Below are positions 1 to 18,880 of a stretch of 18,880 bases of DNA, piece after piece; positions within the stretch are counted from its first letter, which is position 1, and every line of letters starts with the position of its first letter. This DNA comes from a virus (taxonomy: Duplodnaviria; Heunggongvirae; Uroviricota; Caudoviricetes): the IMG/VR virus record IMGVR_UViG_2740892422_000003, positions 1 to 18,880 of that record. One strand, given 5' to 3'. The notes under the pieces were generated by a model. It made no database searches and was not told the origin of the DNA. It saw only the letters and a program-made list of their open reading frames with translations. The translations under genes were made by a program, and so were the position numbers.

Positions 1-50
1 TTGGTGGAGCTGGCGGGAGTTGAACCCGCGTCCGAAATTCCTACATCCTC
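1..50 (-). repeat. Left att direct repeat: 50-nt copy of the 3' end of the tmRNA gene ssrA, antisense on the + strand (displaced partial copy)
   Basis: Bases 1-50 are identical to 18831-18880. The reverse complement reads GAGGATGTAGGAATTTCGGACGCGGGTTCAACTCCCGCCAGCTCCACCA, the T-arm and acceptor CCA end of the tRNA-like domain of tmRNA. Sequence from 51 onward is AT-rich island DNA, not ssrA body. Confidence 0.85.
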
Positions 51-129
51 TTACATAGTATGGGAAAACAAAGCATTACCATATAAATCAATGTGTTGAT
101 TGACACTGACTAACAGTGCTTAACAGTCG

Positions 130-1143
130 CTAACACTCTGCATGGACATTTTGTGGATCTTTTTTGCTGATTTTTAACTTAATGAACTGAGGAACGCTTG
201 CGTCAATTGTAGTGTGATATTGAAATAAGGGGGATTTTCTATCACGATTATTGATTGAATAACTTATTATATCCTTCATAAGTAGCACAAAGTCAGTGGT
301 GAAATTATATTCAAGTATCTCAACCATTTTTAAATGAAAGTGCCAGTATGATTGTAGATATTTTTTTATATCCAATTCATCCGAAAATTTTGTTTTTAAG
401 AATAAAATATATTCATCTTCACCGTGGGTTGAGCACTGATAGAGTTTTTCAATATCTAAACGCTTTAGTCCATAAAGGTTGTGCAATAATTCTAATAGTT
501 TTTCAATGCTATGTATATGGGTGTATAACTCTGTATAGTCATTAATTTCTTCTTTTTTAAATAGTTCAACTAGTTGGCACCAAATTAATTCTGCATTTTG
601 TATGTAGTCCTTGGAAGCATCAAAATTATTATTAGTAGTTGAAGCATAAGGATAGCATTTACGATATGTAGAATAACAATTTTCAAATTCTAATTTTGCG
701 TTCTTTTTTATCAAAGGAATGTCTAAAGATTCAAGATGTTGTAATGCTTCTATAGTGTTTTTTCTATGGGTATAGAAAAAATCCACTTTGTTTTTCTTTT
801 CTGCTTCTTTGATTTGTTTATCTGTTTGTATTGTTCGATGAATATTATTGACAACTACTCCCAGTGGAATCGATAAAGATAAAACAGCTAAAGGAAGTTT
901 ACTAATGTTTAGGAAATTATTAAATCCTTCCGTATCGATTTGAACATTGTGACCATTCCATGCAACAAATCCGAGCAGAAAAAAACTAATTATTGGAATT
1001 GCCAGTGCGGCTTTGAATAATGGTTGATGCGTAAGAGGTTCAGCATTCATCTTGAATGCATTTATCTTGAATAAATAACCCATGTAAACAACCACAAATA
1101 AAATGTTAAATAAAACGATGCATTGATTGATTGTAAGGTTCAT
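130..1143 (-). CDS. Hypothetical membrane-anchored protein (337 aa), low-GC cargo gene directly downstream of the integrase
   Basis: Long ORF with hydrophobic N-terminal segments (CIVLFNILFVVVYMGYLF, LFKAALAIPIISFFLLGFVAW, LPLAVLSLSIPLGVVV) followed by a roughly 250-aa soluble domain rich in K/E/Y/N. Same strand as int with a 6-nt gap. Much more AT-rich than the phage core. No family recognised. Confidence 0.7.
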   Translation of the reverse strand: MNLTINQCIVLFNILFVVVYMGYLFKINAFKMNAEPLTHQPLFKAALAIPIISFFLLGFVAWNGHNVQIDTEGFNNFLNISKLPLAVLSLSIPLGVVVNNIHRTIQTDKQIKEAEKKNKVDFFYTHRKNTIEALQHLESLDIPLIKKNAKLEFENCYSTYRKCYPYASTTNNNFDASKDYIQNAELIWCQLVELFKKEEINDYTELYTHIHSIEKLLELLHNLYGLKRLDIEKLYQCSTHGEDEYILFLKTKFSDELDIKKYLQSYWHFHLKMVEILEYNFTTDFVLLMKDIISYSINNRDRKSPLFQYHTTIDASVPQFIKLKISKKDPQNVHAEC

Positions 1144-1149
1144 TTTTCT

Positions 1150-2163
1150 CTAAATTATTAATGATAAAGGATTTTTTGTTATTACATCTTCAAGATGCGT
1201 TGGCGCAAAGTGAGCATAGATCATAGTCATTTTTATATCTGAATGGCCTAAAATCTCTTTAAGAACAAGTATGTTTCCGCCATTCATCATAAAGTGGCTG
1301 GCAAATGTATGTCGTAATACATGTGTACACTGGCCTTCAGGCAGTACAATCCCCGCTTTAGCTACAGTACGCTCGAAAGTTTTACGGCACGGGGCAAACA
1401 ATTGGCCTCGTTTTTTTGGTATCTCGTTATAAAGCTCTTTTGAGATAGGTATAGAACGTACCTTTCTACTTTTCGTATTTTTGTAAGTGATACGGTATGG
1501 CGTAACTTGAGAGCCTTCTAGATTTTCCGCTTCACTCCACCTTGCACCGGTAGCAAGGCAAATCTTAGTGATGATGAGAACGTGCGGGCTATTAGATTCG
1601 GATAAATATTGTAAAAGAGTTTTGATTTCTTCTGAATAAAGAAAAGAAACCATTTTTTCATCAACTTTAAAGGTTGGAATTCCTGCCAATGGATTTGGAA
1701 GCGACCAATGGCCTAGTTTTTTTAGTGTACCAAATACGGCAGATAGATAGCGTTGCTCATGATTTACTGTCCGTGGTTGTATCGGCATACAACGTCCATT
1801 TATATCCGGAATTTCACCCTTTAAGCGACCTTCTCTGTATTGGCTGAAATCCGCCGCTGTGATTTGTGCTGCAATCGGATTTCCCATACCAGCACAAATA
1901 CCTTTCAATTTCGACATCATGCGGTCGGCATCTGCTAATGTTCGACCATATAGATCATGCCACTGCTCAATCAGATCTGATAAGCGTCGATTATCTTGCT
2001 TCTCACCCAGCCAGGGTTTGCCTTCCATTTCGCTGGCGATATATTTTTCATATGCCAGTGCTTCACCTTTCGTGGCGAATTTTTTACGAATACGCTTACC
2101 TTTCACCCCATTAGGGCGAAGATCGCACAACCATTCACCGCTTTCGATTTTCCGAACTGCCAT
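1150..2163 (-). CDS. int: Tyrosine site-specific integrase (P2/186 Int-like)
   Basis: 337-aa ORF. The C-terminal region carries tyrosine-recombinase signatures (HVLRHTFASHF and LGHSDIKMTMIYAHF with the catalytic Tyr). It lies next to the att repeat and the CI gene abuts it, as in P2/186. Confidence 0.93.
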   Translation of the reverse strand: MAVRKIESGEWLCDLRPNGVKGKRIRKKFATKGEALAYEKYIASEMEGKPWLGEKQDNRRLSDLIEQWHDLYGRTLADADRMMSKLKGICAGMGNPIAAQITAADFSQYREGRLKGEIPDINGRCMPIQPRTVNHEQRYLSAVFGTLKKLGHWSLPNPLAGIPTFKVDEKMVSFLYSEEIKTLLQYLSESNSPHVLIITKICLATGARWSEAENLEGSQVTPYRITYKNTKSRKVRSIPISKELYNEIPKKRGQLFAPCRKTFERTVAKAGIVLPEGQCTHVLRHTFASHFMMNGGNILVLKEILGHSDIKMTMIYAHFAPTHLEDVITKNPLSLII

Positions 2164-2738
2164 TACTCACTCACTAAGTATGTGGCCACAACCTTCCCAA
2201 TCAATTGCACATCAGATACGTCGCAATCAACTGGATATTTTCCCCAGTCAATCCGCAATTTGTTACCAGGAAGTAACGTCAATTCTTTGATGCTTTTCGT
2301 ACCAGAATACTCAAGAAGGAACTTACCGTCCGTAACAGGGTAATCAGCGATATCTACGAAAAATCTCACTGAACTATCACTGATTATTTGAAGTTCACCT
2401 TTGTAGTTGGGGAGTATTGTCTTATCGAAAATTACGGATGCTTGGCGAACCATATCAGACCCTTCGATTTTATAGGCTGAGATTCGAGTGGTATCACTTG
2501 CCACCTGATCAAATCTAACGCCATCACCAGTGGTTAGCCAGTAGATAGAAGCTCCTGTTTCTAGAGCACAAAGTAGTACTAAATCAGCAGGAAAGTTGTC
2601 ACGCATGATACGTGTACTTAAAGCACTTGGAGACATTCCAAGATAATTTGCTAACTGCATTCTGGATGTAAAACCATAAGCCTCACACACCCTTTCGATT
2701 GCTTCGCGTGCACCTGTCTTGATGTTGTAAGTTGTCAT
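2163..2738 (-). CDS. cI: CI-type immunity repressor (phage 186 CI-like), about 191 aa from the internal ATG
   Basis: Sequence from the internal Met (MTTYNIKTGAREAIERVCEAYGFTSRMQLANYLGMSPSALSTRIMRDNFPADLVLLCALETGASIYWLTTGDG) has an N-terminal HTH-like region and the size of 186 CI. Its stop overlaps the int start by 1 nt. The track ORF extends to 2852, but that 38-codon extension overlaps the operator/promoter region, so the ATG at 2736-2738 is preferred. Confidence 0.8.
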   Translation of the reverse strand: MTTYNIKTGAREAIERVCEAYGFTSRMQLANYLGMSPSALSTRIMRDNFPADLVLLCALETGASIYWLTTGDGVRFDQVASDTTRISAYKIEGSDMVRQASVIFDKTILPNYKGELQIISDSSVRFFVDIADYPVTDGKFLLEYSGTKSIKELTLLPGNKLRIDWGKYPVDCDVSDVQLIGKVVATYLVSE

Positions 2739-2889
2739 GTTTGTAGTTCGCAACTGTTGACAAACGACAATTTTAAAAATAATCTCTGAATTGTTTCGAA
2801 TGTAGATATTGATAATTGTCGTTTGTAGATTATTAACAACTATTGTCACCAACGCTCATTAGTGACAAACGAATGAGGAATTTTGCCGT
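2739..2889. promoter_or_regulatory. Lysis-lysogeny switch region with repeated operator-like motifs and a rightward promoter
   Basis: Between divergent cI and the early operon. An 8-9 bp motif GTTTGTAG / GACAAACG occurs in both orientations at about 2739-2746, 2757-2767, 2817-2828 and 2864-2871. A TTGACA (2757-2762), 17-nt spacer, TAATCT (2780-2785) arrangement is a sigma70-like promoter pointing toward the early operon. Confidence 0.55.
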
Positions 2890-3078
2890 ATGCAAACTAA
2901 AGCTGCAACACATTCAGAAAGCAGGTGGGTACCTCTGAAAACGTTTTGCGACAGGGTTGAAATAAAACTGCGCACGGGACGTTACTGGGTACACACTGGC
3001 AAACTCAAAATCAAACCTAAAAGCAAACCGAAAGAACATGTGTTTGTAGATTGGCTTGCGTGGAACAGTGAAAAGTAA
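2890..3078 (+). CDS. Small basic DNA-binding protein, Cro/Apl/Cox-like (62 aa)
   Basis: First gene of the rightward early operon, divergent from cI. Small and basic (KLKIKPKSKPKEH). The call rests on synteny with 186 apl and P2 cox, not on recognised sequence similarity. Confidence 0.5.
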   Translation: MQTKAATHSESRWVPLKTFCDRVEIKLRTGRYWVHTGKLKIKPKSKPKEHVFVDWLAWNSEK

Positions 3079-3121
3079 TCATCACTTTTAGTGATTTTGA
3101 GATTGGGATGGAAGAAAAACA

Positions 3122-3625
3122 ATGTTTGATTACCAGACCTCTAAACATGCGCACTTTGATGCGGCTTGCCGAGCATTTGCAATTGAGCACAATCTTGAAG
3201 ATGTGGCCGCTGCCGTTGGTATGAGGCCGCAGATCCTGCGCAACAAACTGAACCCAGCACAACCGCACCGCCTGACCTGTGATGAGCTTTTGGCTATCAC
3301 GGATTACACCGAAGATGCGCGTTTGCTTGATGGAATGTTAGGTCAGATTAACTGCCTTCCATCCGTGCCGGTGAACAATGCCACAGAAGGCAACATGCAG
3401 TTGTGCGCACTGAGTGCCACAGCCTGTGTGGGCGCGATTGCTGGGGAAGCCGTATCAACTGGCCATATGACTGCCGCCCGCCGTACTCAAATTCTGGATC
3501 GTGCCCGCGATGCAATCCGTAGCTTATCCGTGCTGGCTTATACCGTTGAAAGCCGTATTCACTCTGCGCCTGTTCTGGCCGCTGCGGTGGATCTGGCCAC
3601 AACCAACGCCACCGGCCTGATGTGA
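3122..3625 (+). CDS. cII: CII-like phage regulatory protein (phage 186 CII family)
   Basis: 167 aa, beginning MFDYQTSKHAHFDAACRAFAIEHNLEDVAAAVGMRPQILRNKLNP, with a predicted HTH. Same position and size as 186 CII. Confidence 0.75.
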   Translation: MFDYQTSKHAHFDAACRAFAIEHNLEDVAAAVGMRPQILRNKLNPAQPHRLTCDELLAITDYTEDARLLDGMLGQINCLPSVPVNNATEGNMQLCALSATACVGAIAGEAVSTGHMTAARRTQILDRARDAIRSLSVLAYTVESRIHSAPVLAAAVDLATTNATGLM

Positions 3626-3634
3626 GGGAACACC

Positions 3635-3808
3635 ATGAAAGCGTTTGTCACTTACCTGAAAAAAGAATCACCAGACATGCAGTTGCCGAGTGGTTCAACG
3701 GGATGGATAGAACTTCCGAACGGTCAGCGCTGGAACCCTGGCCACATGTACAAATTCAATGGCCAGCAGCCGCGTCGCCCATGGTGGCGTCGTCTGATGG
3801 GGCTATAG
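3635..3808 (+). CDS. Small hypothetical early protein (57 aa), not in the ORF track
   Basis: ATG at 3635 is preceded by GAGGGAA about 7 nt upstream, immediately after the cII stop. Translation is MKAFVTYLKKESPDMQLPSGSTGWIELPNGQRWNPGHMYKFNGQQPRRPWWRRLMGL. The overlapping frame (track ORF 3622..) gives a W/P-rich sequence that looks like out-of-frame noise. Confidence 0.4.
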   Translation: MKAFVTYLKKESPDMQLPSGSTGWIELPNGQRWNPGHMYKFNGQQPRRPWWRRLMGL

Positions 3809-3816
3809 GGGGCGTT

Positions 3817-4245
3817 ATGGCGATTAGCCAGGAACAGCAAAAGCGCGGGTTGGAGCATTGTAAAAGAATGCGTCTTCAGATCAACCCAGCCTACAGCGAT
3901 GCGGGGGACTGGTGGGACAACTTGACACCAGAGTGGCGCGGCGTGGTGCTTCATGCTGCTGCTGTTACTTCAGGTGCCGGGGTATTTAAAGCCCACTTAA
4001 GCAAATGCTGCTGGCAGGAACTTTATGAACGTCTGGGATATCGGGACATGATTCAACTACGACGGGGTATTTCACGGGCGCGCTTAACGTTCGAAGGTTT
4101 CGGCAGTTTACGTGACAGCGATTTTTCAAAGCGCACCGCGAACCGCCCGATCAAAAAGGCACATCCAATTTATAGCAGTAGCGGGGTGCAGATGGTGATC
4201 GCGCCTCATATCGTCCATAAGTTCCAGCAACAGGGGAATCACTAA
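3817..4245 (+). CDS. Hypothetical early protein (142 aa)
   Basis: Internal ATG of the track ORF 3622..4245, preceded by a G-rich RBS-like run. Its stop overlaps the start of the next ORF (ATGA). The start is ambiguous; in-frame ATGs at 3703 and 3781 are alternatives. Confidence 0.5.
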   Translation: MAISQEQQKRGLEHCKRMRLQINPAYSDAGDWWDNLTPEWRGVVLHAAAVTSGAGVFKAHLSKCCWQELYERLGYRDMIQLRRGISRARLTFEGFGSLRDSDFSKRTANRPIKKAHPIYSSSGVQMVIAPHIVHKFQQQGNH

Positions 4246-4646
4246 TGACCATTATTTCCGTTGAGGGTAAATCGTTGGGGGCTGAACTGGCTGTGTGGGG
4301 TGTCCCGCATAATTACGCTGTAGCGTTTGCAGCGAAAAGCACCAGTAAGAATGGCCGCATCGCTTTGCATCCGTTCTTCTTCAATGACACCGAGCACATG
4401 ACGAATCCGCGTCACTGGCTGGCGATCAATGCCGCTTTCTGGTGTTGCGTGTATCGCGAAGCTGAAAGCAAAGAAGCCCAGATAGAAGCGCTGGCGGGGA
4501 TTCGTGCAATTTTCTATACAGCTGGGGCGCTGGGTGTTGGCGAGATAAAAGCGCTGATCCAGGAGTGGTGGCGGACAACCTATGAGCTTCACCTGATTCC
4601 GGCACCGAACTACTCAGCCGCTACAGTACAACCCACTTTTCACTAA
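4245..4646 (+). CDS. Hypothetical early protein (133 aa)
   Basis: ORF translationally coupled to the upstream gene. No family recognised. Confidence 0.6.
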   Translation: MTIISVEGKSLGAELAVWGVPHNYAVAFAAKSTSKNGRIALHPFFFNDTEHMTNPRHWLAINAAFWCCVYREAESKEAQIEALAGIRAIFYTAGALGVGEIKALIQEWWRTTYELHLIPAPNYSAATVQPTFH

Positions 4647-4713
4647 TTAACAGCCTGAATTTTTTGGCCACGGTTCAAGTGGCCGGGGATTCTTTTGCCT
4701 TAAGGAAACCAAA

Positions 4714-4947
4714 ATGCACATGACACGTCAGGATTTACCCGCAACAAAATCAGGCACCGACCTGCTGGCCATGCTCACCAAAGCCACGCAGGAAGGTAAA
4801 GCCGCAGCTGCTGATCTGTGTTCCACACGTCTGGATAAGCTGGCCACCCATGCAGCCAATGAAGGTTTAAGCGCAGCGGAAATCGTTGAGTTAATCCGCG
4901 AAGAAGCCGCAGCGATTTGCAGCAAAGGCGGTGCGGCATGGCAATAA
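4714..4947 (+). CDS. Hypothetical small protein (77 aa), Ala-rich
   Basis: ATG preceded by AAGGAAA. Its 3' end overlaps the dam start. Confidence 0.5.
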   Translation: MHMTRQDLPATKSGTDLLAMLTKATQEGKAAAADLCSTRLDKLATHAANEGLSAAEIVELIREEAAAICSKGGAAWQ

Positions 4948-5798
4948 AAACTCCGCTTAAATGGGTGGGCAGCAAAGCCCGCCTTATGCCTAAGCTGCGT
5001 CCGCACCTTCCTGAAGGTAAACGCCTGGTTGAACCGTTCGCAGGTTCCTGCGCCGTCATGATGAATACGGATTATGACGATTATCTGATCGCAGATGTGA
5101 ATCCTGATCTGGTTAATCTTTATAAGGCGATGGCGTATCACACTGATGTGCTGCTGAATGAGCTGGAGAGCCTGTTTACTGCCGGTTCGTTAGGTGATGA
5201 AGAAAGCCGTGCCGTTTTCTATTACGCCGTGCGTGATGCTTTCAATCTTTCTGGTGGTAAGGCCGGTTCTGAATCTGTTGAAAATGCTGCGCGTTTCCTG
5301 TACCTGAATCGCCACTGTTTCAATGGCCTGTGCCGGTATAACCGCCGAGGCCAGTTCAACGTCCCGTTCGGTAAGTACAAAAAGCCTTATTTCCCCGCTG
5401 ATGAAATCCGCGCTTTTGCTGAAAAAGCGAAACGCGCAACGTTCATTACTGCCCACTATTCAGAAACGCTCGATTTGGTTCGGGACGGGAATGACGTTGT
5501 TTACTGTGATCCACCTTATCTGACTGAAAGCGATAATTTCACCGCTTACTATGGGCTCGGTTTTTCGCACATGGATCAGGGGAGGCTGGCGCGTAAGTTG
5601 CGCCGTCTGGCCAGAAAAGGCGTGCCGGTTGTGGCCTCTAATGCCGATCTGGAAATGGTGCATTACCTGTACGCCGGATTTGAAGCCGTTCGCATTAATG
5701 CCCCGCGTAGTGTTGGTGCCGCAGCTGCAAGCCAGAAAGTTGCTGCAGAGTTAATTCTGAAGTCGCCGCTTGATTCTATAGCGATGGCCTGCGCATGA
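4938..5798 (+). CDS. dam: DNA adenine methyltransferase (Dam-like, GATC N6-adenine MTase family)
   Basis: Motif I LKWVGSK, HLPEGKRLVEPFAGSCAVMMNTDYDDYLIADVNPDLVNLY, FLYLNRHCFNGLCRYNRRGQFNVPFGKYKKPYFP and catalytic DPPY (VVYCDPPYL) align closely with E. coli Dam as I recall it. Start set at the internal ATG (MAIKTPLKW); the track start at 4917 is an alternative. Confidence 0.9.
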   Translation: MAIKTPLKWVGSKARLMPKLRPHLPEGKRLVEPFAGSCAVMMNTDYDDYLIADVNPDLVNLYKAMAYHTDVLLNELESLFTAGSLGDEESRAVFYYAVRDAFNLSGGKAGSESVENAARFLYLNRHCFNGLCRYNRRGQFNVPFGKYKKPYFPADEIRAFAEKAKRATFITAHYSETLDLVRDGNDVVYCDPPYLTESDNFTAYYGLGFSHMDQGRLARKLRRLARKGVPVVASNADLEMVHYLYAGFEAVRINAPRSVGAAAASQKVAAELILKSPLDSIAMACA

Positions 5799-7816
5799 CT
5801 CCTGTCGCAAATGGCCAACATCATGCCGTCGATACCTGGCGGCGTGAAACGTTCGCACCGGGTACGCCTACAGACGCCACGATCACCGAGCGCCGCCTGT
5901 GGGCGGTTAATCCGCAGGATTACGAATGGCGCTCACAGTACCTGCATGAGATACCCGACTGGTTAGCCGGGTATTTTGGCCGTCGTTACGAAAAGCTTTT
6001 TTCTGGCCGTGACGGGCGTCGCCGTGCCAATACATTCCTGCGCAAAACAATCGGTGAGAATGTATTGCCACGTCTGCGCAAAGTGGCTGCGCGTTACTCG
6101 CTGGCCGCTGATGCTGCTGATCTTCCTTTTGGTAAGTCGCTGGAGCGCTTGCCGTCACTAGACCGTCCTGATCTTAAAAAACTGGCTGGCCAGGTATCTG
6201 GTTGGATTTCCCAGTCACTTTATGACTTCACCGAACAGTTTGATTCCGGCACTGACGATGCCAGAGAGCTGCATCGCCGCACCCTGGAATCTTACCGCCA
6301 TCTTTGTGCCTGTTGCCTGATGCTGAATAACCAGCCGCCGTACTGGACTGAACATGAGGCCAATGAAGGTCAACTGGAAATGCGTAAGGCGGAATCCGGG
6401 ATACTGCGCATGATGGCGCCGGAATGGTGGTACCTGCGTCTTAAACGTGCGCGTGATACGAAGCGCGAGCACATGGCCATTGCGGTGGGACAGGTGCAAA
6501 AAGCGGCCAGCGCTTATGTATCCCGCAAAACACTGGGCGAATGGATAGACCAGAAAAAGCGGAATCTGGAGTTCTTTAAAAAGTTTGATCTGCTGAATGA
6601 TGAGGGGCTGCGCATTGCACTGGACAGCCTGGTGCACCGCAGCGTTGCAAATCCGGCGATCCGTCGATGTGAACTAATGGTAAGAATGCGAGGGTTTGAA
6701 GATATGGCCAATGAAGAAGGACTGGCCGGTGAGTTTTACACCATCACCGCGCCATCACGTTTCCACGCAGTGCACAGCAAAGGTGGCTTTGTATCGCAAT
6801 GGGATGGATGTACGCCGCAGGATACCCAGCGCTATTTATGCGGCATATGGGCAAAAGCACGCGCAGCGATCTCGCGTGCGGGTATTCATGTATTTGGGTT
6901 TCGGGTTGTTGAGCCTCACCATGACGGGACACCGCACTGGCATATGTTGCTTTTTATGCGTCCGCATGACGTGGACACGGTACGCGATATTCTTTGCTAT
7001 CACGCCAGAATTACCGATTCTGAAGAACTGCAATCTGAAAAGGCGCTGAAGGCGCGTTTTCATGTTGAAGCGATCGATCCCGCCAAAGGTTCGGCCACGG
7101 GCTACATCGCGAAATACATTTCAAAAAATATTGATGGTTTTGCGCTGGATGGTGAGCAGGACGAAGAAACCGGCGAAAACCTGCGTGATATGGCTAAGTC
7201 CGTTTCCGCGTGGGCTTCACGCTGGCGTATTCGCCAGTTTCAGCAGATTGGTGGTGCGCCGGTAACTGTCTGGCGTGAGCTGCGTCGGTTGCGGGATCAG
7301 GTGCTGACCGATCGCAGAATGGATGCGGTTCTGGCCGCTGCTGATGTCGGTGACTGGGCTGCATATACCCAGGCGCAGGGCGGTGCACTGGTTGCCCGCC
7401 GTGATCTGGTTGTTCGTCTGGCCTATGAAATTACGGAACAGGGCAACGAGTACGCAGAGGACGTACAGCGCGTACAGGGGGTTTATTCTCCTTTAGTTCC
7501 TGATTCAGAAGTTTGCACCCGTCTGGTTAAGTGGCAAAAGGTTGCGAAGTTGGCCGAAGCGCCAGCGGAGGCGGGGTTTTCTGGCGGCAACGCCGCCCCT
7601 TGGAGTTCTGTCAATAACTGTACGGAGGGGGGAGCCCGCAGACGGTTAAAACTGGAATTACGCAGTCGGGGTTTTGAGGGTTCCGATGAAGAAATAGCCA
7701 TTCTCCTGCGGGGTAGTGGTTTGAGATTCGGTCAAGGGGCGCTGATTTACCGTAATGGGCGGCTTAAAGAGACTCAAAACGAGCCATTACAGGAGCTGTG
7801 GCCGGGGTGGGTGTAG
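5795..7816 (+). CDS. Rolling-circle replication initiation protein (P2 gpA / 186 A-like)
   Basis: 673 aa. Contains an HUH-type motif (HHDGTPHWHMLLF) and a downstream tyrosine motif (GYIAKYISKN) typical of P2 A-family nickases. Sits after the early regulatory genes as in P2/186. Start overlaps the dam stop (ATGA). Confidence 0.88.
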   Translation: MTPVANGQHHAVDTWRRETFAPGTPTDATITERRLWAVNPQDYEWRSQYLHEIPDWLAGYFGRRYEKLFSGRDGRRRANTFLRKTIGENVLPRLRKVAARYSLAADAADLPFGKSLERLPSLDRPDLKKLAGQVSGWISQSLYDFTEQFDSGTDDARELHRRTLESYRHLCACCLMLNNQPPYWTEHEANEGQLEMRKAESGILRMMAPEWWYLRLKRARDTKREHMAIAVGQVQKAASAYVSRKTLGEWIDQKKRNLEFFKKFDLLNDEGLRIALDSLVHRSVANPAIRRCELMVRMRGFEDMANEEGLAGEFYTITAPSRFHAVHSKGGFVSQWDGCTPQDTQRYLCGIWAKARAAISRAGIHVFGFRVVEPHHDGTPHWHMLLFMRPHDVDTVRDILCYHARITDSEELQSEKALKARFHVEAIDPAKGSATGYIAKYISKNIDGFALDGEQDEETGENLRDMAKSVSAWASRWRIRQFQQIGGAPVTVWRELRRLRDQVLTDRRMDAVLAAADVGDWAAYTQAQGGALVARRDLVVRLAYEITEQGNEYAEDVQRVQGVYSPLVPDSEVCTRLVKWQKVAKLAEAPAEAGFSGGNAAPWSSVNNCTEGGARRRLKLELRSRGFEGSDEEIAILLRGSGLRFGQGALIYRNGRLKETQNEPLQELWPGWV

Positions 7817-7896
7817 TTGTGTAAGTATGTGAAAGGCATTCATTTGTCAGTAGATGGCAGGAAAAAGCACTTTCACATTTTGTGCTTAAATGTATA

Positions 7897-7912
7897 CTGT
7901 GTTTATATACAG
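7897..7912. promoter_or_regulatory. LexA (SOS) box, CTGT-N8-ACAG
   Basis: CTGTGTTTATATACAG is a perfect match to the CTGT-N8-ACAG LexA consensus with an AT-rich centre. It overlaps candidate -10 elements (TATACT about 7893-7898, TATATA about 7904-7909). Confidence 0.7.
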
Positions 7913-7931
7913 TTATTCTGTTTTTGGGAGG

Positions 7932-11277: not shown

Positions 11278-11437
11278 GCGGATAATTATGCCGTGGCTGT
11301 GATGAAAAAACGGTGGTGTTAATTCGTGTCCGTTCGGTAAAGCGTTATAACCGAACTGTTCAGAATAAAGCGTAATGCAGTGGCGGTTTTATTTGGCAAT
11401 AATTGATTTGCAGCGTCAGGGAGTGGAACAGGGGGAT
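11278..11437. promoter_or_regulatory. Divergent late-promoter region between terminase (leftward) and scaffold (rightward) genes, containing a dyad symmetry element
   Basis: Inverted repeat GTTCGGT-N11-ACCGAAC at about 11332-11356, embedded in TGTCCGTTCGG...CCGAACTGTTCAG. It lies between two divergently starting late operons, where P2-type late promoters carry the activator-binding dyad. Confidence 0.5.
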
Positions 11438-12241
11438 ATGTCACATTTAAAAACTGACTGGCTGTGTGTTGCTACTGAAGGGGATACCGTTGACGGCAGG
11501 GTAATTAAACGGCAGTGGATCATTGATATGGGGGAAACCTATGACTATAGCCACTATGTCGCTTTAATCTGGCCAGAACATGAGGATGATTGCGGAAATT
11601 TTGGTGAAGTGCTGGAAGCCACCTGGAATGATGGTGAAGATGGACTGGCACGGTTATATGTCAGCCTTTGCCCGAATATGCGTCTGATTTTCGCAAATCA
11701 TGAAGATCAGCTTTTGTTCTTCTCCATTGAGCCGGAAGAAAACTGGCGCGGTAGCGGGCGTACTTACCTGAAAGGGCTGGCGGTAACAGATACACCTGCC
11801 AGCGTTGGCACCACACGGCTGCGCTTTAGTAGTCGGCGCAATAAATTAACAAAGCAGGGATATTACAGCTGTGTAATTTCCCATGACGGAAAAATTAAAC
11901 AGGAAGCAAGAATGAAGAACTGGCAGAAACTGTTTGGTCTTAAACCAAAGTTTGAAGATGAAACGCCGCAGGATAATCCTGCCCCGGATGAAGATAAATT
12001 ACAGGCGCTTGCCAATGTGGTTAACGATCTGGAAGCGCGTGTGGCGAAAATTGAAACTCAACTGAATGACGTTCAGGGTGATGTTGACACAATCGCTGAA
12101 GTGGTGGATACGCAGGAATTTGCGGCAATTCGCGATAATGCAAAAGAAATCGTAACCCGCTTTAACGATTTGGGTAATAAAAACCCCCGTACACCGGGGC
12201 GTACTATTAAAGATAAAGCCGGGAAATTTAATTTCCTGTAA
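11438..12241 (+). CDS. Capsid scaffolding protein (P2 gpO-like)
   Basis: Internal ATG preceded by AGGGGGA. N-terminal VATEGDTVDGRVIKRQWIIDMGETYD resembles the P2 O N-terminus (GVEGDTCDGRVI...) as I recall it, and YLKGLAVTDTPASVGTTRLRF resembles the conserved gpO protease-like segment. The track ORF begins 63 nt upstream at 11375. Confidence 0.8.
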   Translation: MSHLKTDWLCVATEGDTVDGRVIKRQWIIDMGETYDYSHYVALIWPEHEDDCGNFGEVLEATWNDGEDGLARLYVSLCPNMRLIFANHEDQLLFFSIEPEENWRGSGRTYLKGLAVTDTPASVGTTRLRFSSRRNKLTKQGYYSCVISHDGKIKQEARMKNWQKLFGLKPKFEDETPQDNPAPDEDKLQALANVVNDLEARVAKIETQLNDVQGDVDTIAEVVDTQEFAAIRDNAKEIVTRFNDLGNKNPRTPGRTIKDKAGKFNFL

Positions 12242-12303
12242 TTCGCTTTATTGCTGATTAGTCCAGAACATATTTTTAAATCGCTTAATTGCGAGGGAGT
12301 TTT

Positions 12304-13326
12304 ATGCACCTTAATAATCGTGCGCGGGATTTACTGGATAAATATTCGGCGGGGATGGCGCAGCAGTTTGGTGCGCGTGATACCAGTCGATATTTTTCCC
12401 TGAATGACCCGCAGGAAAATGCGCTGCGTCTTGCGTTGCTGGAATCCGTCGAGTTCCTGAACATGATCACCTGTCTGGATGTTGACCAGCTGAGTGGCCA
12501 GGTGATCTCTGTCGGTTCTTCCGTGCTGCATACCGGCCGCAGCGAAAATGGCCGTTTTATTCGTCAGGTAGGCGTTGACGGTAATGACTATTCCCTGGTT
12601 GAAACAGACAGCTGCGCCGCACTGCGCTGGGATCTGCTTTCTGTCTGGGCAAACGCCGGTAAGGACGAAAACGAATTTTACAACCTGGTACAGGCATTCA
12701 CCACGCAGGCTTTTGCGCTGGACATGTTGCGCATTGGTTTCAATGGTAAGAGCCGGGCGAAAACCACTGATCCGGTAGCAAACCCGAACGGTGAAGATGT
12801 GAACATCGGCTGGCATGAGCGTATGAAAACGCTGCTGGGCGGCAATCAGATTATGACGGATGCCGTGGTGCTTGATGAGGCCGGGGATTACAAGTCACTG
12901 GATGCAATGGCGTCCGATCTGATTAACGCCAAAATCCCGGCGCAGTTCCGCAATGACCCGCGTCTGGTTGTCCTGGTCGGTGCCGATCTGGTCGCTGCTG
13001 AACAGTACCGACTGTATCAGGCGGCAGACCGTCCGACTGAAAAAATTGCTGCGCAGATGCTGGGAAGTACCATTGCTGGCCGTCAGGCCATTATCCCGCC
13101 GTTTATGCCGGGTAAACGCATGGTGGTTACGCCGCTTTCTAACCTGCACATCTACACCCAGCGCAATACCCGTATGCGTAAGGCGGAGTTTGTTGAAGAT
13201 CGTAAGCAGTTCGAAAACAAATACCTGCGCAATGAAGGTTACGCGGTGGAAGTGCCGGAGCTGTATGCGGCCATTGATGAATCCGCAGTGACGATCGGCA
13301 AAGTCTCCGAACCGGTGGAGGGCTGA
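12304..13326 (+). CDS. Major capsid protein (P2 gpN-like)
   Basis: About 340 aa from the ATG preceded by GAGGGAG. Segments FNGKSRAKTTDPVANPNGEDVNIGWHE and GDYKSLDAMASDLIN resemble recalled P2 N sequence. Directly follows the scaffold gene. Confidence 0.85.
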   Translation: MHLNNRARDLLDKYSAGMAQQFGARDTSRYFSLNDPQENALRLALLESVEFLNMITCLDVDQLSGQVISVGSSVLHTGRSENGRFIRQVGVDGNDYSLVETDSCAALRWDLLSVWANAGKDENEFYNLVQAFTTQAFALDMLRIGFNGKSRAKTTDPVANPNGEDVNIGWHERMKTLLGGNQIMTDAVVLDEAGDYKSLDAMASDLINAKIPAQFRNDPRLVVLVGADLVAAEQYRLYQAADRPTEKIAAQMLGSTIAGRQAIIPPFMPGKRMVVTPLSNLHIYTQRNTRMRKAEFVEDRKQFENKYLRNEGYAVEVPELYAAIDESAVTIGKVSEPVEG

Positions 13327-13329
13327 TAA

Positions 13330-15222
13330 ATGGCACTTTCCCCCGCGCAGCGTCACAGCCAGCGCATTGCGATGGAACAAAAGCTGAAACGCAGCCAGGC
13401 ACTGGAAACCACGGAAAGTATGCACCTGCTGATCAGGGCGTTGGAAACAGATGTGGAACACGTTCGAAGTCTGCCTACCATCGCCGATCGCGTCGAGTAT
13501 AAACGCGATGTGCTGTTAATGATGAAACCAGTAAAACGCCTTTACCTTTCAACGGATGAAGTTCACCTGGTGGATGCCAGCCTGGTACTGGAGCTGAACA
13601 GCTGCGGCCGGGGCTTCATCACCGCAGAGACAACAACCGATTACACCGGAAAACTGGTGCGGCTGGATGTGGGGTATACCGATCTGCTTTTGCGCTGGTT
13701 TACGGGGTATGTGGAGCGATCACAGCCCGCAGAAAACGGTTTTCAGCGTCTGTTCATTCGTGAGCTGGCAGGTGTGTTTGAAAGGATGTGGCCGTGTTCG
13801 TTTCAACACCCGACTTTGCGAGAAATTGCGGGCTGGCTGGAAGAAAACAGCGGGATCACAGTCAGTGTGCCTGATGCACAGTACAGCGATACCCCCATCC
13901 CACATTTTACCCATAACGGTACTGGTTATCAGTTGCTGAACAATCTGGGCAGGGCGTTCAGTATCCAGGATTACATCTGGTACCAGTTGCCTGATGGTTC
14001 GCTTTACGTCGGCGGCGCAGAAAAATCATTGTTTGCCGGTCGTCCCGTAGAAATCCCGTCAGAGTTCAGCCAGGGGGCTGCTGGCGGTAACTCTGTGACA
14101 TTACCAGTGATCCAGACTATGCGGCCAGGGGTGGAGATGAACGGTGAACGCGTGACTAAAGTTCACCTGACGAATGACACGATGGCGATCACATGGACGC
14201 CGAGAAACCGCGCAACGGGTAAACCTTTGCAGAAAACACCGGCGCAACGGCAGATTGAAAGCCATTACCCGGAACTGGCATCCGGGCTTCATTTGCCAAA
14301 GATGGCCAGAGTCGTGGCGCATTCAGAGCCAGTAAAAAGCGGTAACTTTGCCGATCCCTTCCGGCCACGTTACGCAGTGGACGTGCAGCTGCTTGACGCA
14401 GACGGAAACCCGGACAATCAGACGCCTGTTTACTCAGCGGTGCCGCTGCCGGTGCCAATGGCCGGGAATGATTCAGGTATGTTTCAGTTCCCGCCAGAAG
14501 GGACGCTGGTTGAGGTTGCATTCACGGGAGGCAGACCGGATAAACCCTTTATCAGGCAGACGCTGCCGGATGGTACCAGCCTGCCGGACGTTAAACCCGG
14601 TGAGCAATTGCAGCAGCAGCGGGAAGAAGTTTCCCAGCGGGTGACTCAGGCAGGAGACTGGGTAAGACAGACCGATCAGACCATCAGTGAAACATCGATG
14701 GTGCGAACGGTAAAGGCCGATACGGAACAGCGCGAACTGGTCAGCCGTGAAACCACGGTGAAAGCCACGGATAAAACTACGGTACTGGGAACCGCCACAC
14801 TGCTGGCCGGAGCTATTCAGCAGGTAAGCGCCGGTGATTATAGCCAGGCGGTGAAAGGTAACAGACTGGCCAGTATTGAAGGAAACGAAGAAACGGACAT
14901 AGCAGGACAGCAGTCCACTAAAGTGGGCGGTGCTGTAGCCGTGGAGGTTGGCGAAAGCCTGACAGAGAAAATTGCCGCACTGCGTAAATCAGTGGCCGCT
15001 GGCGGTCAGCAGGTCATGGGGGCAACTGTCCATATTGGCAGTGAGAGTATCAACGCCCTGACCATGATGCTGGATACCATTGATTTACTGGCAGATCTGG
15101 CGCAGCAATGCGCGAGCCATTCGCACCCCACCGTTGGGACGCCAACCAATGCCGCCGCGTTCACACAGACGGCGACGAAAGCCGGGCAGACCCGGAGCAA
15201 GTACCAGGGGATCATTGCTTAA
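13330..15222 (+). CDS. Chimeric 630-aa protein: small-terminase-like N-terminus (gpM-like) joined to a baseplate central-spike-like C-terminus (gpV/gp5/VgrG-like OB fold plus His-containing apex)
   Basis: Starts 4 nt after the capsid gene stop, with GGAGGG upstream. The N-terminus MALSPAQRHSQRIAMEQ resembles the start of P2 gpM (MTSPAQRH..., from memory). The C-terminal half has an OB-fold spike signature (FQFPPEGTLVEVAFTGGRPDKPFI), a repetitive T/V/K-rich segment (TVKADTEQRELVSRETTVKATDKTTVLGTA) and an HxH element near the end (CASHSHPTVGTP). Confidence 0.6.
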   Translation: MALSPAQRHSQRIAMEQKLKRSQALETTESMHLLIRALETDVEHVRSLPTIADRVEYKRDVLLMMKPVKRLYLSTDEVHLVDASLVLELNSCGRGFITAETTTDYTGKLVRLDVGYTDLLLRWFTGYVERSQPAENGFQRLFIRELAGVFERMWPCSFQHPTLREIAGWLEENSGITVSVPDAQYSDTPIPHFTHNGTGYQLLNNLGRAFSIQDYIWYQLPDGSLYVGGAEKSLFAGRPVEIPSEFSQGAAGGNSVTLPVIQTMRPGVEMNGERVTKVHLTNDTMAITWTPRNRATGKPLQKTPAQRQIESHYPELASGLHLPKMARVVAHSEPVKSGNFADPFRPRYAVDVQLLDADGNPDNQTPVYSAVPLPVPMAGNDSGMFQFPPEGTLVEVAFTGGRPDKPFIRQTLPDGTSLPDVKPGEQLQQQREEVSQRVTQAGDWVRQTDQTISETSMVRTVKADTEQRELVSRETTVKATDKTTVLGTATLLAGAIQQVSAGDYSQAVKGNRLASIEGNEETDIAGQQSTKVGGAVAVEVGESLTEKIAALRKSVAAGGQQVMGATVHIGSESINALTMMLDTIDLLADLAQQCASHSHPTVGTPTNAAAFTQTATKAGQTRSKYQGIIA

Positions 15223-15319
15223 TGCTGGTATTCATGTGATAAGTTGAGACGTTCTGGACTTCCTGATGGCTGTAGCTCTGTTGTTGGGTAGCCCAGAAAA
15301 ATTCGAAATAAAATGGGTA

Positions 15320-15874
15320 TCAAGTAGTGGTAATTGTATGGCTTTTGCGGGTTATATAAACGCTATTGGCGGGTACGTCTCTGTTAACGAATGACATTGC
15401 GCCAATTGTCACGTTATCACCAATGGTTAGATCATCACCGATGATGCACGAATTTGCACCAATCTCCACATTGTCTCCGATCCTGATGGCTTTGATTCCC
15501 TCAACCGTTTTTAATCCAATTGTTGTGTTTTGTCGGATACGCACATTCTTACCAATCACAGCCTGGGGGCAAATGACTATTCCAACGAAATGATAAATTT
15601 TGAATTTTTCCCCTATCTGTGCCCCCAACCCAATATCAGTATTGTATTTTGAAACAAGTCTCCTATGGATTCTTCGCGCCCATTTCACTCTTGCTCTCCC
15701 ACCCTGGCAGTAAAGGCAATTCGCTATTCTCCACCAACACATGAACCTGTATCCGGGCTGTCTCCAGCAACGTAGTATGATTCTTCTCCATGAGAATTTT
15801 TTACTGTTGCTCAGTATGTCCGCGCACAATAACTGCTTCATTTCCTCGTAGTGAGATATTTTGCTGCTGCTCAT
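15320..15874 (-). CDS. Hexapeptide-repeat (left-handed beta-helix) acetyltransferase, WcaB/CysE-like sugar O-acetyltransferase family
   Basis: Tandem hexapeptide repeats (IGKNVRIRQNTTIGLKTVEGIKAIRIGDNVEIGANSCIIGDDLTIGDNVTIGAMSFV) and an N-terminal region similar in pattern to WcaB-type acetyltransferases. Lower GC than the phage core. Start is ambiguous (ATG at 15874 or 15841; the track ORF begins with TTG at 15889). Confidence 0.8.
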   Translation of the reverse strand: MSSSKISHYEEMKQLLCADILSNSKKFSWRRIILRCWRQPGYRFMCWWRIANCLYCQGGRARVKWARRIHRRLVSKYNTDIGLGAQIGEKFKIYHFVGIVICPQAVIGKNVRIRQNTTIGLKTVEGIKAIRIGDNVEIGANSCIIGDDLTIGDNVTIGAMSFVNRDVPANSVYITRKSHTITTT

Positions 15875-16661
15875 AAATTGTCCGTCCAAATAATCCTGAC
15901 GGTTATCGTAACATGGGAATGGTCTGATTTTCTGCTAACAGCACAACACTAGGCTATGTGGTTCGGTCTGATAGTGGGCTTCTTCATCCAAAATGATTTA
16001 GTTGGGTTACCAACACAAATCTATTTCTCACATCGTCATAGGCGTCACCAGACGCATTTTAAACCCTTTAGTAACAAACCCTACCCCGCGCACCAAGTGT
16101 AAAAGATCCGAAGCGTGGCGTGGCGCTGGTAGGGTCATATGATGGCGAAATAAATCTTTCGCAGACAAAAACGGCGCTACACCGCACCCGCCTGCGGTTT
16201 CTGGATCTGGAAATTTTTTCAGTTTTATTTTTCTACAAACCAGACCGCCAGACCGCACCATTACTGGCGGCTTTGCAGATAATCAGAACTGAAATGATTG
16301 AAAAGAATTTCAGTGTTTTTCACTTTCATGGATCTGTGGAGGATCGAATACAAAATGTAACCAGCAGAAAAATAAGGGGAAATAATTTTTTTGTGAGTGG
16401 GAAGGATCGTTTTTGTTTTCTGGTTGTTTTCGTCGTAGAAAAGCCGAGGCCAGATTTAGCAAGGCATAGGGACAATTAGAAGGTTCATAGAAAACTGAAA
16501 AAACTGCATGCATGTCGTGGAAACTAGCGAGCTAACAATTGCATCGAAATCTAATTTTAATCTTGGAACTTGAGAAAACTTTTGTCAAATTAGTTGTCGC
16601 TTTTTAGTTGTGGATATCCTTCCGATGTTTACTTGGCAGAGCTTACATTAAGGCATTCGAT

Positions 16662-17780
16662 ATGACTGAAAAATTCACCGCAATTTTGTTAGATACGAGT
16701 ATCTACGATCAGTACGGATTAAAGCTTGAGAAAGGACTGCTGGGTAAGCTTTCCCAGTTCAGCAGAACCCCGACAACGTTTTTGATACCGGATGTAATTT
16801 ACAATGAAGTTAAAAATCATCTTGAAAGAAAAATCAAGACATCACGTGGCTCCCTTGAGAAAGCTTTCGAAGAAGCTGGCGATCATCTTTTTTTTGATGG
16901 AAGCGAACTAAATGATGCAAGAAAAACATTGATTGAAAGCAGAGAAGTTGAAGGATTAGGAAAGAGCAGATTAGACAGATTTGTTGGCGTAACAGATGCG
17001 AAGGTTCTAACTACAGGGGATTATGTTTCGGTACCTGAACTCCTTGAACGATACTTCTCTTCTGAAGCTCCTTTCGCAGATACAGGTAAGAAAAAAAATG
17101 AGTTTCCCGATGCAATAACATTAATGGCCGTCCAAGCCTGGGCTAAAGAGAATGGTGAAAATGTTCTTGCTGTAGCAAGAGATGACGACTGGCAGAGATT
17201 TTGTATTGATGCTGAGAATTTGCACTATGAACCTGACTTATCAAACGCTTTAGCACACTTCAATGAAGAAACCGCACCTTATGAACTAATTGATAACTTA
17301 CAAAAAGCACTTGCTGAAGGACAAGCCGGTAAATTCTTGCATGATGTTGCTGTACACCTTGAGTCAACCTTTGAAGGATTTGCACCAGAACAAGAGGCAG
17401 ATTCATATTTATACTGGGAGGCTGACGGATGCTCAGGTGGATTTGAAGATTTTGAGTTTACAGATAACCACTTCACTGTCATCGACAAGGATGAAAACTG
17501 GGTTGTTATAGAAGCATTTGCAGACATTTCACTTTACGCAGAAGGTGATTTCTCCCTATCGGTTTACGATTCATTCGACAAAGACCATGCTTACATGGGG
17601 TCAATTACCAAGCGAGCCGAGGAAACATATACATCCAGAATACTTATCACAATCTCCGGAGACTTATCAGGTTCTATAGATGATTTGACCGTTGACGATG
17701 TGGAAGTGATCGAGCGTCCAACGTCGATGGATTTTGGGGAGCTTGAATTAGAGTATGAGCCTGACGAGCAAGACTTGTAA
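16662..17780 (+). CDS. PIN-like domain protein with a strongly acidic C-terminal region (372 aa)
   Basis: Start at the ATG (MTEKFTAILLDTSIYDQYG) preceded by TAAGG. The N-terminus has a PIN-like acidic signature (ILLDTSIY; later EFPDAITLMAV, ARDDDW). The C-terminal roughly 150 aa are very D/E-rich (EADGCSGGFEDFEFTDNHF...DDLTVDDVEVIERPTSMDFGELELEYEPDEQDL). Low GC. Confidence 0.65.
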   Translation: MTEKFTAILLDTSIYDQYGLKLEKGLLGKLSQFSRTPTTFLIPDVIYNEVKNHLERKIKTSRGSLEKAFEEAGDHLFFDGSELNDARKTLIESREVEGLGKSRLDRFVGVTDAKVLTTGDYVSVPELLERYFSSEAPFADTGKKKNEFPDAITLMAVQAWAKENGENVLAVARDDDWQRFCIDAENLHYEPDLSNALAHFNEETAPYELIDNLQKALAEGQAGKFLHDVAVHLESTFEGFAPEQEADSYLYWEADGCSGGFEDFEFTDNHFTVIDKDENWVVIEAFADISLYAEGDFSLSVYDSFDKDHAYMGSITKRAEETYTSRILITISGDLSGSIDDLTVDDVEVIERPTSMDFGELELEYEPDEQDL

Positions 17781-17884
17781 CAACTATGATTAGGCACTAT
17801 CGCTGTCGCCATTTTGTCGCCAACTCGATTGCAGTTTCGTTGTAACTAATTGAATTTAATCTTTTTTATTTTCAGGCAACAAAA

Positions 17885-17915
17885 AACCCATCATCTTTAG
17901 AGCATGATGGGTTTA
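17885..17915. terminator. Bidirectional rho-independent terminator between convergent cargo genes
   Basis: AAAAAA, then stem CCCATCAT, a 9-nt loop, stem ATGATGGG, then TTTA, at about 17881-17915 between the PIN-like gene (ends 17780) and the convergent HEPN-like gene (ends 17924). Confidence 0.6.
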
Positions 17916-17923
17916 TAACTTGC

Positions 17924-18733
17924 TTATTCTTTTTTTTCATCCCACGATTCAAGAATAAACATAGTTAGTGTATGTGCAGCATTGATGGCTAATCGTGCGT
18001 GTCGGGGCTTGAGATTGTAAATTTTTCGTCCTGCGCCATGAGCTGAACTCGCATGAGTTCTTAGCGAGCCGATACCATCGGTGAGAGAATATAAGCCGCT
18101 CAAAATGCGTTTTAAGTCCTCATCTTCTACCGCTTTAGTGTCAAGACCTAAATGTTCACGAACGGTCTTCCACAAGCCCTGCAAATCCTGCTTCGCAGGA
18201 ATCGGTAGGTTTTCATCTGCGATAAAAATTTTAAATGTTGATTCTAATATATTACAGGCTGCTGATACTGCTTCTCTTGGGTCAGTATGCAAGTTTTCTA
18301 AAGCTCTTGCGAATTCCATTTCTACTGCTGGAGTATTACGTTTCTGGATAGCTTCTTTCAAGGAAAGGGATGCTAGTGATGCTCCATCAGTAATGTAACC
18401 GCCAGTCACATAGTTCAGCCCATAACGACCAAGTAGTTCCGGCATTTTTTTAACAAACTCGACTTTCTTTTTTTCCCACTCATAGTATGGATTGGCGGGT
18501 AACTCTGACTCCATATAGGTTTCGATTAAGCGACCAAGTAAAACTAATGGTTCATCAGATTCTTTATTAATACGCCTTAACCATTCGAGAGCTTTAACGT
18601 GCTTAGATCCTTCGGGTGGTTCCCCTGGCGCATCAGCATAGGCAAACAAACTATCCAAACTAGCATGGGTTTCAGTGCTAGCAACGAAGTCAGCTACAAC
18701 AGATATTACAGGTTGAGGTATTGGCCGTCCCAT
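17924..18733 (-). CDS. HEPN-like / abortive-infection (Abi_C-like) protein (269 aa)
   Basis: The C-terminal segment GSLRTHASSAHGAGRK fits the HEPN R-x(4-6)-H motif found in Abi_C-type domains, followed by NAAHTLTMFIL. Low GC. Lies next to the right att repeat. Confidence 0.6.
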   Translation of the reverse strand: MGRPIPQPVISVVADFVASTETHASLDSLFAYADAPGEPPEGSKHVKALEWLRRINKESDEPLVLLGRLIETYMESELPANPYYEWEKKKVEFVKKMPELLGRYGLNYVTGGYITDGASLASLSLKEAIQKRNTPAVEMEFARALENLHTDPREAVSAACNILESTFKIFIADENLPIPAKQDLQGLWKTVREHLGLDTKAVEDEDLKRILSGLYSLTDGIGSLRTHASSAHGAGRKIYNLKPRHARLAINAAHTLTMFILESWDEKKE

Positions 18734-18830
18734 ATCTACTCCATCAGCGGGTCAATTTTGAACTTAGTGGACGCAAAGTGGACATTGCATAAAAAAAGGG
18801 ACTACGTTTTCACGTAACCCCTTGTTTTAA

Positions 18831-18880
18831 TTGGTGGAGCTGGCGGGAGTTGAACCCGCGTCCGAAATTCCTACATCCTC
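18831..18880 (-). repeat. ssrA: Right att direct repeat: 3' end of ssrA (tmRNA), probably the end of the intact gene whose body lies beyond the window
   Basis: Identical to bases 1-50. The reverse complement is the tmRNA 3' tRNA-like end with CCA. For a minus-strand ssrA the gene body would lie at coordinates above 18880. Confidence 0.85.

Follow-up and report, generated by a model that had tools for sequence, protein, structure and literature searches.

A tail-less P2-family element of the Escherichia coli ssrA site as a probable recent deletion mutant of an ESSI-2-like prophage

Introduction

The virus record IMGVR_UViG_2740892422_000003, analysed here over its whole length of 18,880 nucleotides (the window), describes a short element that carries its own integrase, a replication endonuclease and four genes of a P2-type phage head, and that ends on both sides in the same 50-bp repeat. 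The window does not hold the complete gene set of a virion, which would include a small terminase, head completion proteins, a contractile tail, a baseplate, fibres and a lysis cassette. This raises the question as to whether the element is a satellite that naturally dispenses with tails or what is left of an ordinary prophage. On the evidence set out below, the element is very probably a defective P2-family prophage; its phage group is ordinary, its site is known, and it does not represent a novel type of mobile element. The lack of tail genes is not its natural condition: the element derives by a very recent deletion from a normal myovirus prophage of ~31.7 kb.

The parental prophage and its nearest phage

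The parent was sought by exact-protein look-ups for long E. coli contigs sharing the Abi_C, 337-aa and capsid proteins of the window, and its sequence was obtained by merging two overlapping loci of one 107.6-kb contig of GCA_025430615.1. Two blocks of the window align to this prophage almost without change, positions 2304-13517 with 3 mismatches in 11,214 and positions 13515-18880 with 1 mismatch in 5,366. The full-length E. coli relatives are ~31.7 kb long, 99.97-99.98% identical to the window and arranged in the order smpB-ssrA-attL...attR.

The closest isolated phage is Escherichia phage ESSI2_ev040 (NC_049393; Quadragintavirus ev040, Peduoviridae; 30.6 kb), one of the ESSI-2-like temperate phages isolated on E. 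coli from infant viromes (PMC6969025). ESSI2_ev040 and the ESSI-2-like prophages of E. coli have the same gene order as the window, and from CII through to the acetyltransferase the nucleotide identity is 87-95%. In detail, window 4938-13517 matches ESSI2_ev040 23374-14795 at 94.9%, window 13515-15234 matches 1722-3 at 95.5%, and window 15237-16378 matches the other end of the circularly permuted record at 87%. CII, Fil, Dam, gpA, an Ogr gene downstream of the portal gene, TerL, gpO, the P2-type capsid, gp01, the acetyltransferase and an Abi protein are common to both. In contrast to ESSI2_ev040, the window lacks 12.9-13.1 kb from terS codon 64 to gp02, possesses an additional 337-aa gene and a PIN_12 gene, and has a different integrase/att module, the relatives of the ev040 type sitting between rcdA and ybjL. 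ESSI2_ev040 covers only ~60% of the window and the window is without 43% of ESSI2_ev040, the values of 87-95% describing the shared blocks and not a formal intergenomic distance. The threshold of the International Committee on Taxonomy of Viruses for a genus is ~70% nucleotide identity over the full length. Judged from its sequence, the element derives from a temperate E. coli myovirus of the P2 family that is ESSI-2-like (Quadragintavirus-like, Peduoviridae).

A 12.9-kb deletion and a fused gene

In the GCA_025430615.1 parent the two window blocks are separated by a single gap of 12,872 bp, and the same break is found against the plaque-forming phage ESSI2_ev040, where it amounts to 13,072 bp (record positions 14795|1722). 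The ESSI2_ev040 segment that is absent from the window contains the rest of terS and the genes for the adaptor, tail terminator/completion, sheath, tube, holin, endolysin, spanin, tape measure, baseplate, fibre and fibre-assembly proteins, together with gp03-gp02. The left end of the deletion is nucleotide 188 of terS and the right end lies 4 nt before the ATG of gp01 (567 aa); only GTT (3 bp) is shared at the junction (13515-13517). The outcome is an in-frame TerS(1-63)::gp01 open reading frame (ORF) of 630 aa (13330-15222), of which residues 3-63 match small terminases and residues 65-630 baseplate proteins in PHROG, the gp01 part also giving weak matches to Phage_base_V and Gp5_C. The fusion protein occurs on one NCBI contig and one Logan contig only; its 90% cluster has 683 members, and among the 15 members listed most are ~567 aa long. 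All of the remaining genes have the same lengths as in the intact relatives, which indicates that the deletion is very recent. The initial annotation had held the absence of tail and lysis genes to be real on the strength of the flanking repeats; it is real, but what demonstrates it is the internal junction and not the repeats.

Since the contig comes from a draft short-read assembly and has repeats at both ends, it might be argued that the deletion was produced during assembly and that the strain carries a complete prophage. However, the 3 bp shared at the junction are far too little for a k-mer graph misjoin, and the identical junction lies inside an independent Logan contig from another run (10,147 bp; 100% identity). 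Misassembly was rejected on these two grounds, and its probability is regarded as negligible.

It is proposed that one illegitimate recombination at the 3-bp microhomology recently removed 12.9 kb from the lineage. This event would have eliminated the small terminase from codon 64 on and the genes for head-completion/adaptor, sheath/tube, holin/endolysin/spanin, tape measure, baseplate and tail-fibre proteins. The functions of lysogeny and excision (int, CI, Cox/Apl, CII), those of replication (gpA, Dam), Ogr, the four head genes (portal, large terminase, scaffold and capsid) and the cargo at both ends would have been retained.

The terminal repeats and integration at ssrA

Bases 1-50 and 18831-18880 are 100% identical, as established by a repeat search and by direct reading, and no other repeat longer than 29 nt was found within the window; chance cannot account for a perfect repeat of 50 nt in a sequence of 18.9 kb. 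The repeat is the antisense of the last 49 nt of E. coli transfer-messenger RNA (tmRNA), the product of ssrA, plus one base. Positions 18832-18880 on the minus strand match positions 325-374 of the 374-position Rfam tmRNA model (53.4 bits, gathering score 47, E 1e-18), a segment that constitutes the 3' tRNA-like end and thus the att core expected of elements at the 3' end of ssrA. Within the window ARAGORN detected no complete tmRNA or tRNA, the tmRNA being represented by this 3' fragment only. The identity, ssrA origin and antisense orientation first ascribed to the repeats are therefore borne out by the repeat search and the Rfam match. Since the tmRNA lies on the minus strand, the body of ssrA would be expected to the right of position 18880; at the left copy there is no adjoining ssrA body, and unrelated phage DNA follows from position 51 on.

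The chromosomal context is provided by near-identical relatives. Those that are 99.96-99.98% identical to the right arm of the window possess smpB, an intact 363-nt tmRNA gene (tag ANDENYALAA), the last 49 nt of which are the window repeat, Abi_C and PIN_12. Their gene order is rpsP ... recN, bamE, ratA, smpB, tmRNA, Abi_C, PIN_12, acetyltransferase, gp01, gp02 onward, such that one copy of the repeat runs on into an intact ssrA body, with chromosomal DNA flanking the prophage on both sides. Past the 337-aa gene, at the opposite end, come a repeat copy of 42 or 49 nt (attR) and then other islands, and tandem neighbour elements are seen at the ssrA site in relatives. The continuation of ssrA from the right repeat, which had been suggested as a check, is thus found in these relatives.

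The tyrosine integrase noticed at the outset is confirmed by two domain matches (Table 1) and is located at the end far from ssrA, with the 337-aa cargo gene between it and the att repeat. It shares 84.8% identity with the Cronobacter phage ESSI-2 integrase and 66-67% with the SopEPhi and RE2010 integrases, and is hence related to known ssrA-specific integrases. SopEPhi and Fels-2, the latter named as a user of this site in the initial annotation, integrate in ssrA and, like the window, have its 3' end as their att core (PMC3448106). The tmRNA locus is a hot spot of extreme prophage diversity in E. coli and Salmonella (PMC3603311). Although Fels-2, SopEPhi, RE2010 and ESSI-2 fall in the same integrase clade as the window (the identities above being those for ESSI-2, SopEPhi and RE2010), these phages are complete and differ in structural-gene lineage, the parent of the window having an ESSI-2/HP1-like tail module. 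Similarly, coliphage 186 resembles the window in its 186-type CI, Apl/Cox, CII (CP76) and Fil but, unlike the window element, integrates in tRNA-Ile genes (PMC3448106). The smpB-tmRNA-attL arrangement of the near-identical relatives, coupled with the kinship of the integrase, argues that the element uses a tyrosine integrase of its own to insert into the final 49 nt of ssrA, in agreement with the 3'-end site originally proposed. CP4-57 and other cryptic ssrA elements are likewise defective integrative elements at this hot spot. CP4-57 is a P4-like cryptic element with a different type of integrase and is not known to carry P2-type head genes.

The physical state of the element is a separate matter. 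The window is one entire contig of a draft short-read assembly (JRGC01000012.1, GCA_000754855.1, 18,880 bp), identified by an exact look-up of the 630-aa ORF; no mention of the assembly accession JRGC00000000 was found in the literature searched. Both contig ends coincide with the first base at which the attL and attR contexts of the relatives diverge, at one end TACC|GAGG (ssrA) versus GTAA|GAGG (phage) and at the other one base past CCACCA, and it was at this att repeat, seen as the identical 50-bp ends, that the graph assembler stopped. As the window is a whole contig, the two copies may represent a single repeat node of the assembly graph that was written out at each end; they are compatible with two physical att sites without proving them, and are also compatible with an excised circle plus an empty site. 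The initial claim that the window holds the whole element therefore stands, but by construction of the assembly, since the ends of the window are those of the contig. More generally, a 50-bp direct repeat at both ends of a window can be a contig broken at an att repeat.

This contig could accordingly be read as a circular excised episome, the 'direct repeats' of which are a single attP printed twice. Graph assemblers emit identical fixed-length ends for cycles, as would suit a window that is a whole contig, and intact int, cox and gpA genes together with a LexA-controlled gene make excision and replication plausible. However, a repeat-flanked integrated prophage would yield the same graph and contig, a free circle without a chromosomal link would break randomly and not at the exact points of ssrA/phage divergence, and all long contigs of the near-identical relatives show the integrated state. 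An episome is thus considered unlikely, and it would bear on the physical state of the element only, not on its identity.

Defective prophage or satellite

P4-like satellites and capsid-forming phage-inducible chromosomal islands (cf-PICIs) are similar to the window in their small size, integration and excision genes, Ogr/Delta activator and possession of head genes without tail genes. In contrast to those of satellites, the head genes of the window are the parent's own, TerS and the adaptors are deleted and not specialised, Psu, Sid and primase are absent, and there is no conserved lineage. The architecture was sought in 48 species-representative genomes, 24 contigs with an identical capsid, 80 IMG/VR loci and 5,426 complete E. 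coli genomes. terS and the tail genes were intact in all 48 species-representative loci (Enterobacterales and Vibrionaceae), in all 24 identical-capsid contigs, in 76 of the 80 IMG/VR loci and in 27 of 30 complete E. coli genomes. The satellite reading was rejected, there being no conserved tail-less lineage in any sample searched. Of the P4-like satellite genes looked for in the window (Psu, Sid, Delta, alpha primase-helicase and an AlpA-type regulator), none was found except a single Ogr-type zinc finger. The recurrent tail-less architecture of cf-PICIs, with its own TerS and head-tail connectors, is not seen either, as TerS is truncated, the adaptors are deleted and the element is a singleton.

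One relative, locus L012 (GCA_018430565.1), carries a P4-like satellite (11327-21014) in tandem directly past the attR of a full-length ssrA prophage. Its genes include an integrase, SIR2_2, DUF87, Psu, a Delta-type Ogr, AlpA, ASH and a primase, and a P2-family prophage and a P4-like satellite thus lie side by side at one att site. The detection of these genes in L012 also establishes that the same searches are able to find them.

A functional, helper-dependent 'capsid-forming' satellite could nevertheless have arisen from a P2-family phage, making its own heads and drawing on a co-resident ESSI-2-like or P2-like phage for TerS, head completion, tails and lysis. In support of this, the head, replication, excision and regulatory genes are all intact, and portal, TerL, scaffold and capsid are likewise kept in two other E. 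coli prophages of this family, the independent deletions of which begin within terS nucleotides 1-214; of four such junctions, three are in-frame fusions. Against it, the junction is a singleton with flanks 99.97% identical to the intact parent, and so is without an independent evolutionary history; the deletion is present in none of the 48 species representatives and none of the 24 identical-capsid contigs. Other decay forms differ in their left ends and some are without a capsid gene (CUPF12, L135, L008), such that no consistent set of genes is retained, and the matches in the window include no specific gene such as Psu, Sid, a primase or a redirecting TerS. Furthermore, 18.8 kb is ~59% of the parental genome and a dimer ~119%, and, given the way cos packaging operates in P2 and lambda, both are expected to fit the parental head poorly. 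A functional satellite is therefore very unlikely.

Several points do weigh against a simple defective prophage. Its integrated state, as opposed to an excised circle, is deduced from near-identical relatives and not from this contig, and its inability to package (no TerS) or lyse is predicted from gene content. The intactness of all genes outside the deletion fits a recent event but may also reflect selection for a functional tail-less element. Moreover, the starting points of three independent E. coli deletions all fall in the 5' part of terS, no more than 84 bp apart, which hints at a non-random process. In an incipient helper-dependent element, SOS-induced excision and replication would be combined with the element's own procapsids and with packaging and tails from a related ESSI-2-like or P2-like phage, the fusion protein, in which the N-terminal part of TerS is preserved, possibly interfering with helper packaging and the clustering in terS resulting from selection; this scenario is given scarcely any credence.

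The element as a defective prophage has consequences for the counting of satellites. What looks like a 'tail-less element' can be a common prophage that has only just suffered a deletion, and such elements are not to be counted as satellites before a check for an intact, near-identical parent. The window is also a clean, datable example of the first step in prophage decay at the ssrA hot spot, although otherwise of little broader importance.

Other deletions in the family

The prophages of E. coli EcPF15 and 300709, both at the rcdA-ybjL site, have deletions of their own. The left ends in terS are at nucleotide 131 in EcPF15, 188 in the window and 214 in 300709 (GGAAG microhomology), the sites compared being window 13330-13543, L002 18461-18604 and L003 18430-18643; the right ends are scattered across a 1.5-kb stretch towards the end of the tail module. 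Because the flanks of the window are 99.97% identical to an intact parent, its deletion is independent of those in EcPF15 and 300709. Elsewhere in the family, left ends lie at the start of the capsid gene (CUPF12), at its end (L135), ~1.6-1.7 kb past it (L099, L103) and in the sheath gene (L122), L008 and PSJ-16 have quite different losses, and L017 and L018 are also decay forms. This wider sample weakens the clustering in terS. With ~10 events over ~4.4 kb, a rough scan-statistic estimate by hand arithmetic gives p ~0.1, and a deletion hot spot in terS was not found convincing. No Chi sites were found. The 19-nt cos sequence of P2/P4 was likewise not found at up to 3 mismatches.

L008 (GCA_000460335.1; 13690-20553) carries this ssrA prophage too, matching window 1-4040 and 15024-18880 at 99.8-99.9% identity, but decayed differently: the tape measure and some lysis genes are kept, whilst gpA, all head genes and the baseplate genes are lost. 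In L017 (8151-9923; E. coli CUPF12, PK5), a different P2-family prophage, a 590-aa ORF annotated as major capsid protein continues, from locus position 8375, into sequence 89% identical to gp01 of ESSI2_ev040.

Organization of the window

The features of the window are collected in Table 1. Its head module is of the P2 type, with divergent portal-TerL and scaffold (gpO)-capsid (gpN) operons (PF04860, PF03237/PF17289/PF06056, PF05929, PF05125), and the combination of a gpA rolling-circle replication endonuclease with an Ogr-type late activator is likewise characteristic of the P2 family. The true start of CI is probably internal to the ORF given, the gene calls in relatives being 191 or 228 aa. 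The GC content is ~52% in the phage core and 31-46% in the cargo at the ends.

Table 1. Features of the 18,880-nt window and the matches on which they are based
Feature	Position	Strand	Basis
Distal att repeat, attR-type; last 49 nt of tmRNA + 1 nt	1-50	-	Repeat search, relatives
Cargo gene, 337 aa, ~31% GC, between att and int	130-1143	-	PHROG 17460 (function unknown)
Tyrosine integrase, 337 aa	1150-2163	-	Int_N 7.5e-31, Phage_integrase 1.5e-21
186-type CI repressor	2163-2852	-	Phage_CI_repr, Phage_CI_C
Cox/Apl-like excisionase and repressor	2890-3078	+	phrog_575, 3.6e-14
CII (CP76) regulator	3122-3625	+	Domain match
Early genes: Fil (3635-3808), 142-aa and 133-aa unknowns, DUF2732	3635-4947	+	Domain/PHROG matches
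Dam-type N6-adenine methyltransferase	4938-5798	+	Domain match
gpA replication endonuclease, 673 aa; length as in intact relatives	5795-7816	+	PF05840 4.5e-104
LexA-box consensus CTGTGTTTATATACAG, perfect	7897-7912	+	Motif scan
72-aa ORF	7932-8150	+	Just downstream of LexA box
Ogr/Delta late-gene activator, overlapping end of portal gene	8124-8447	-	PF04606 9e-20
Portal protein (gpQ-like)	8444-9505	-	Domain match
Large terminase (gpP-like)	9502-11277	-	Domain match
gpO scaffold/protease	11375-12241	+	Domain match
P2-family major capsid protein	12304-13326	+	Domain match; identical protein in 93 index blocks of the collection
Small terminase remnant, codons 1-63 of ~233	13330-13518	+	phrog_74 on residues 3-63; alignment to intact terS
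Deletion junction, GTT microhomology	13515-13517	.	Alignments to relatives
Complete last late gene: 567-aa baseplate/spike protein = gp01 of ESSI2_ev040	13519-15222	+	phrog_2258 on residues 65-630, 7e-276
Hexapeptide-repeat O-acetyltransferase (cargo)	15320-15889	-	Domain match
119-aa unknown (cargo)	16120-16479	+	ORF
PIN_12-domain protein (cargo)	16662-17780	+	Pfam PIN_12
Abi_C/AbiJ-like abortive-infection protein (cargo adjoining attL)	17924-18733	-	Abi_C 8.4e-22; PADLOC AbiJ 9.3e-17
ssrA-proximal att repeat, attL-type; in relatives the 3' end of the intact tmRNA gene	18831-18880	-	

Regulation and predicted behaviour

The LexA box overlaps a -10-like TATACT just upstream of the 72-aa ORF and downstream of gpA. 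One box is not rare by chance, 0.18 being expected and 34 of 200 shuffles containing at least one. In phage 186, the LexA-controlled antirepressor gene tum sits in the matching position downstream of gpA. The location of the 72-aa ORF, which matched no named family, suggests a Tum-like role for its product, and SOS induction of the element is plausible.

From the functions retained, CI would maintain repression and immunity, Int and Cox could excise the element, gpA could replicate it, and Ogr could switch on portal, TerL, scaffold and capsid. Self-repression and immunity are thus probably still possible, and SOS induction, excision and replication are probably retained. In the absence of TerS, head-completion, tail and lysis genes, no infectious particle would be formed by the element itself. 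The host probably still gains immunity and the functions of the cargo and accessory genes, i.e. the AbiJ-like Abi protein, the PIN-domain protein, Dam and the acetyltransferase.

Cargo genes

The 337-aa protein encoded next to the distal repeat has no match in Pfam, PADLOC or NCBIfam; its gene, which is conserved among the full-length relatives, may be a moron or a defence gene. The 119-aa and 72-aa proteins have no match in PADLOC, NCBIfam or Pfam, and the PIN-domain protein, PIN_12 aside, has none in PADLOC, PHROG or NCBIfam. Four genes form the cargo block between the last late gene and attL (15320-18733; ~40-46% GC). In one relative, L007, three other genes replace the PIN_12 region, and the block may thus be a hot spot of variable cargo.

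The int and cI genes of the window adjoin directly, leaving no room for cargo. In relatives at the rcdA-ybjL site, the space between int and cI contains variable cargo (L003 5322-7055; L002 5445-7031), consisting of an AAA ATPase and a DUF4276 protein in one and of a 528-aa TPR protein in the other. The former two correspond to the gene pair of the PARIS defence system.

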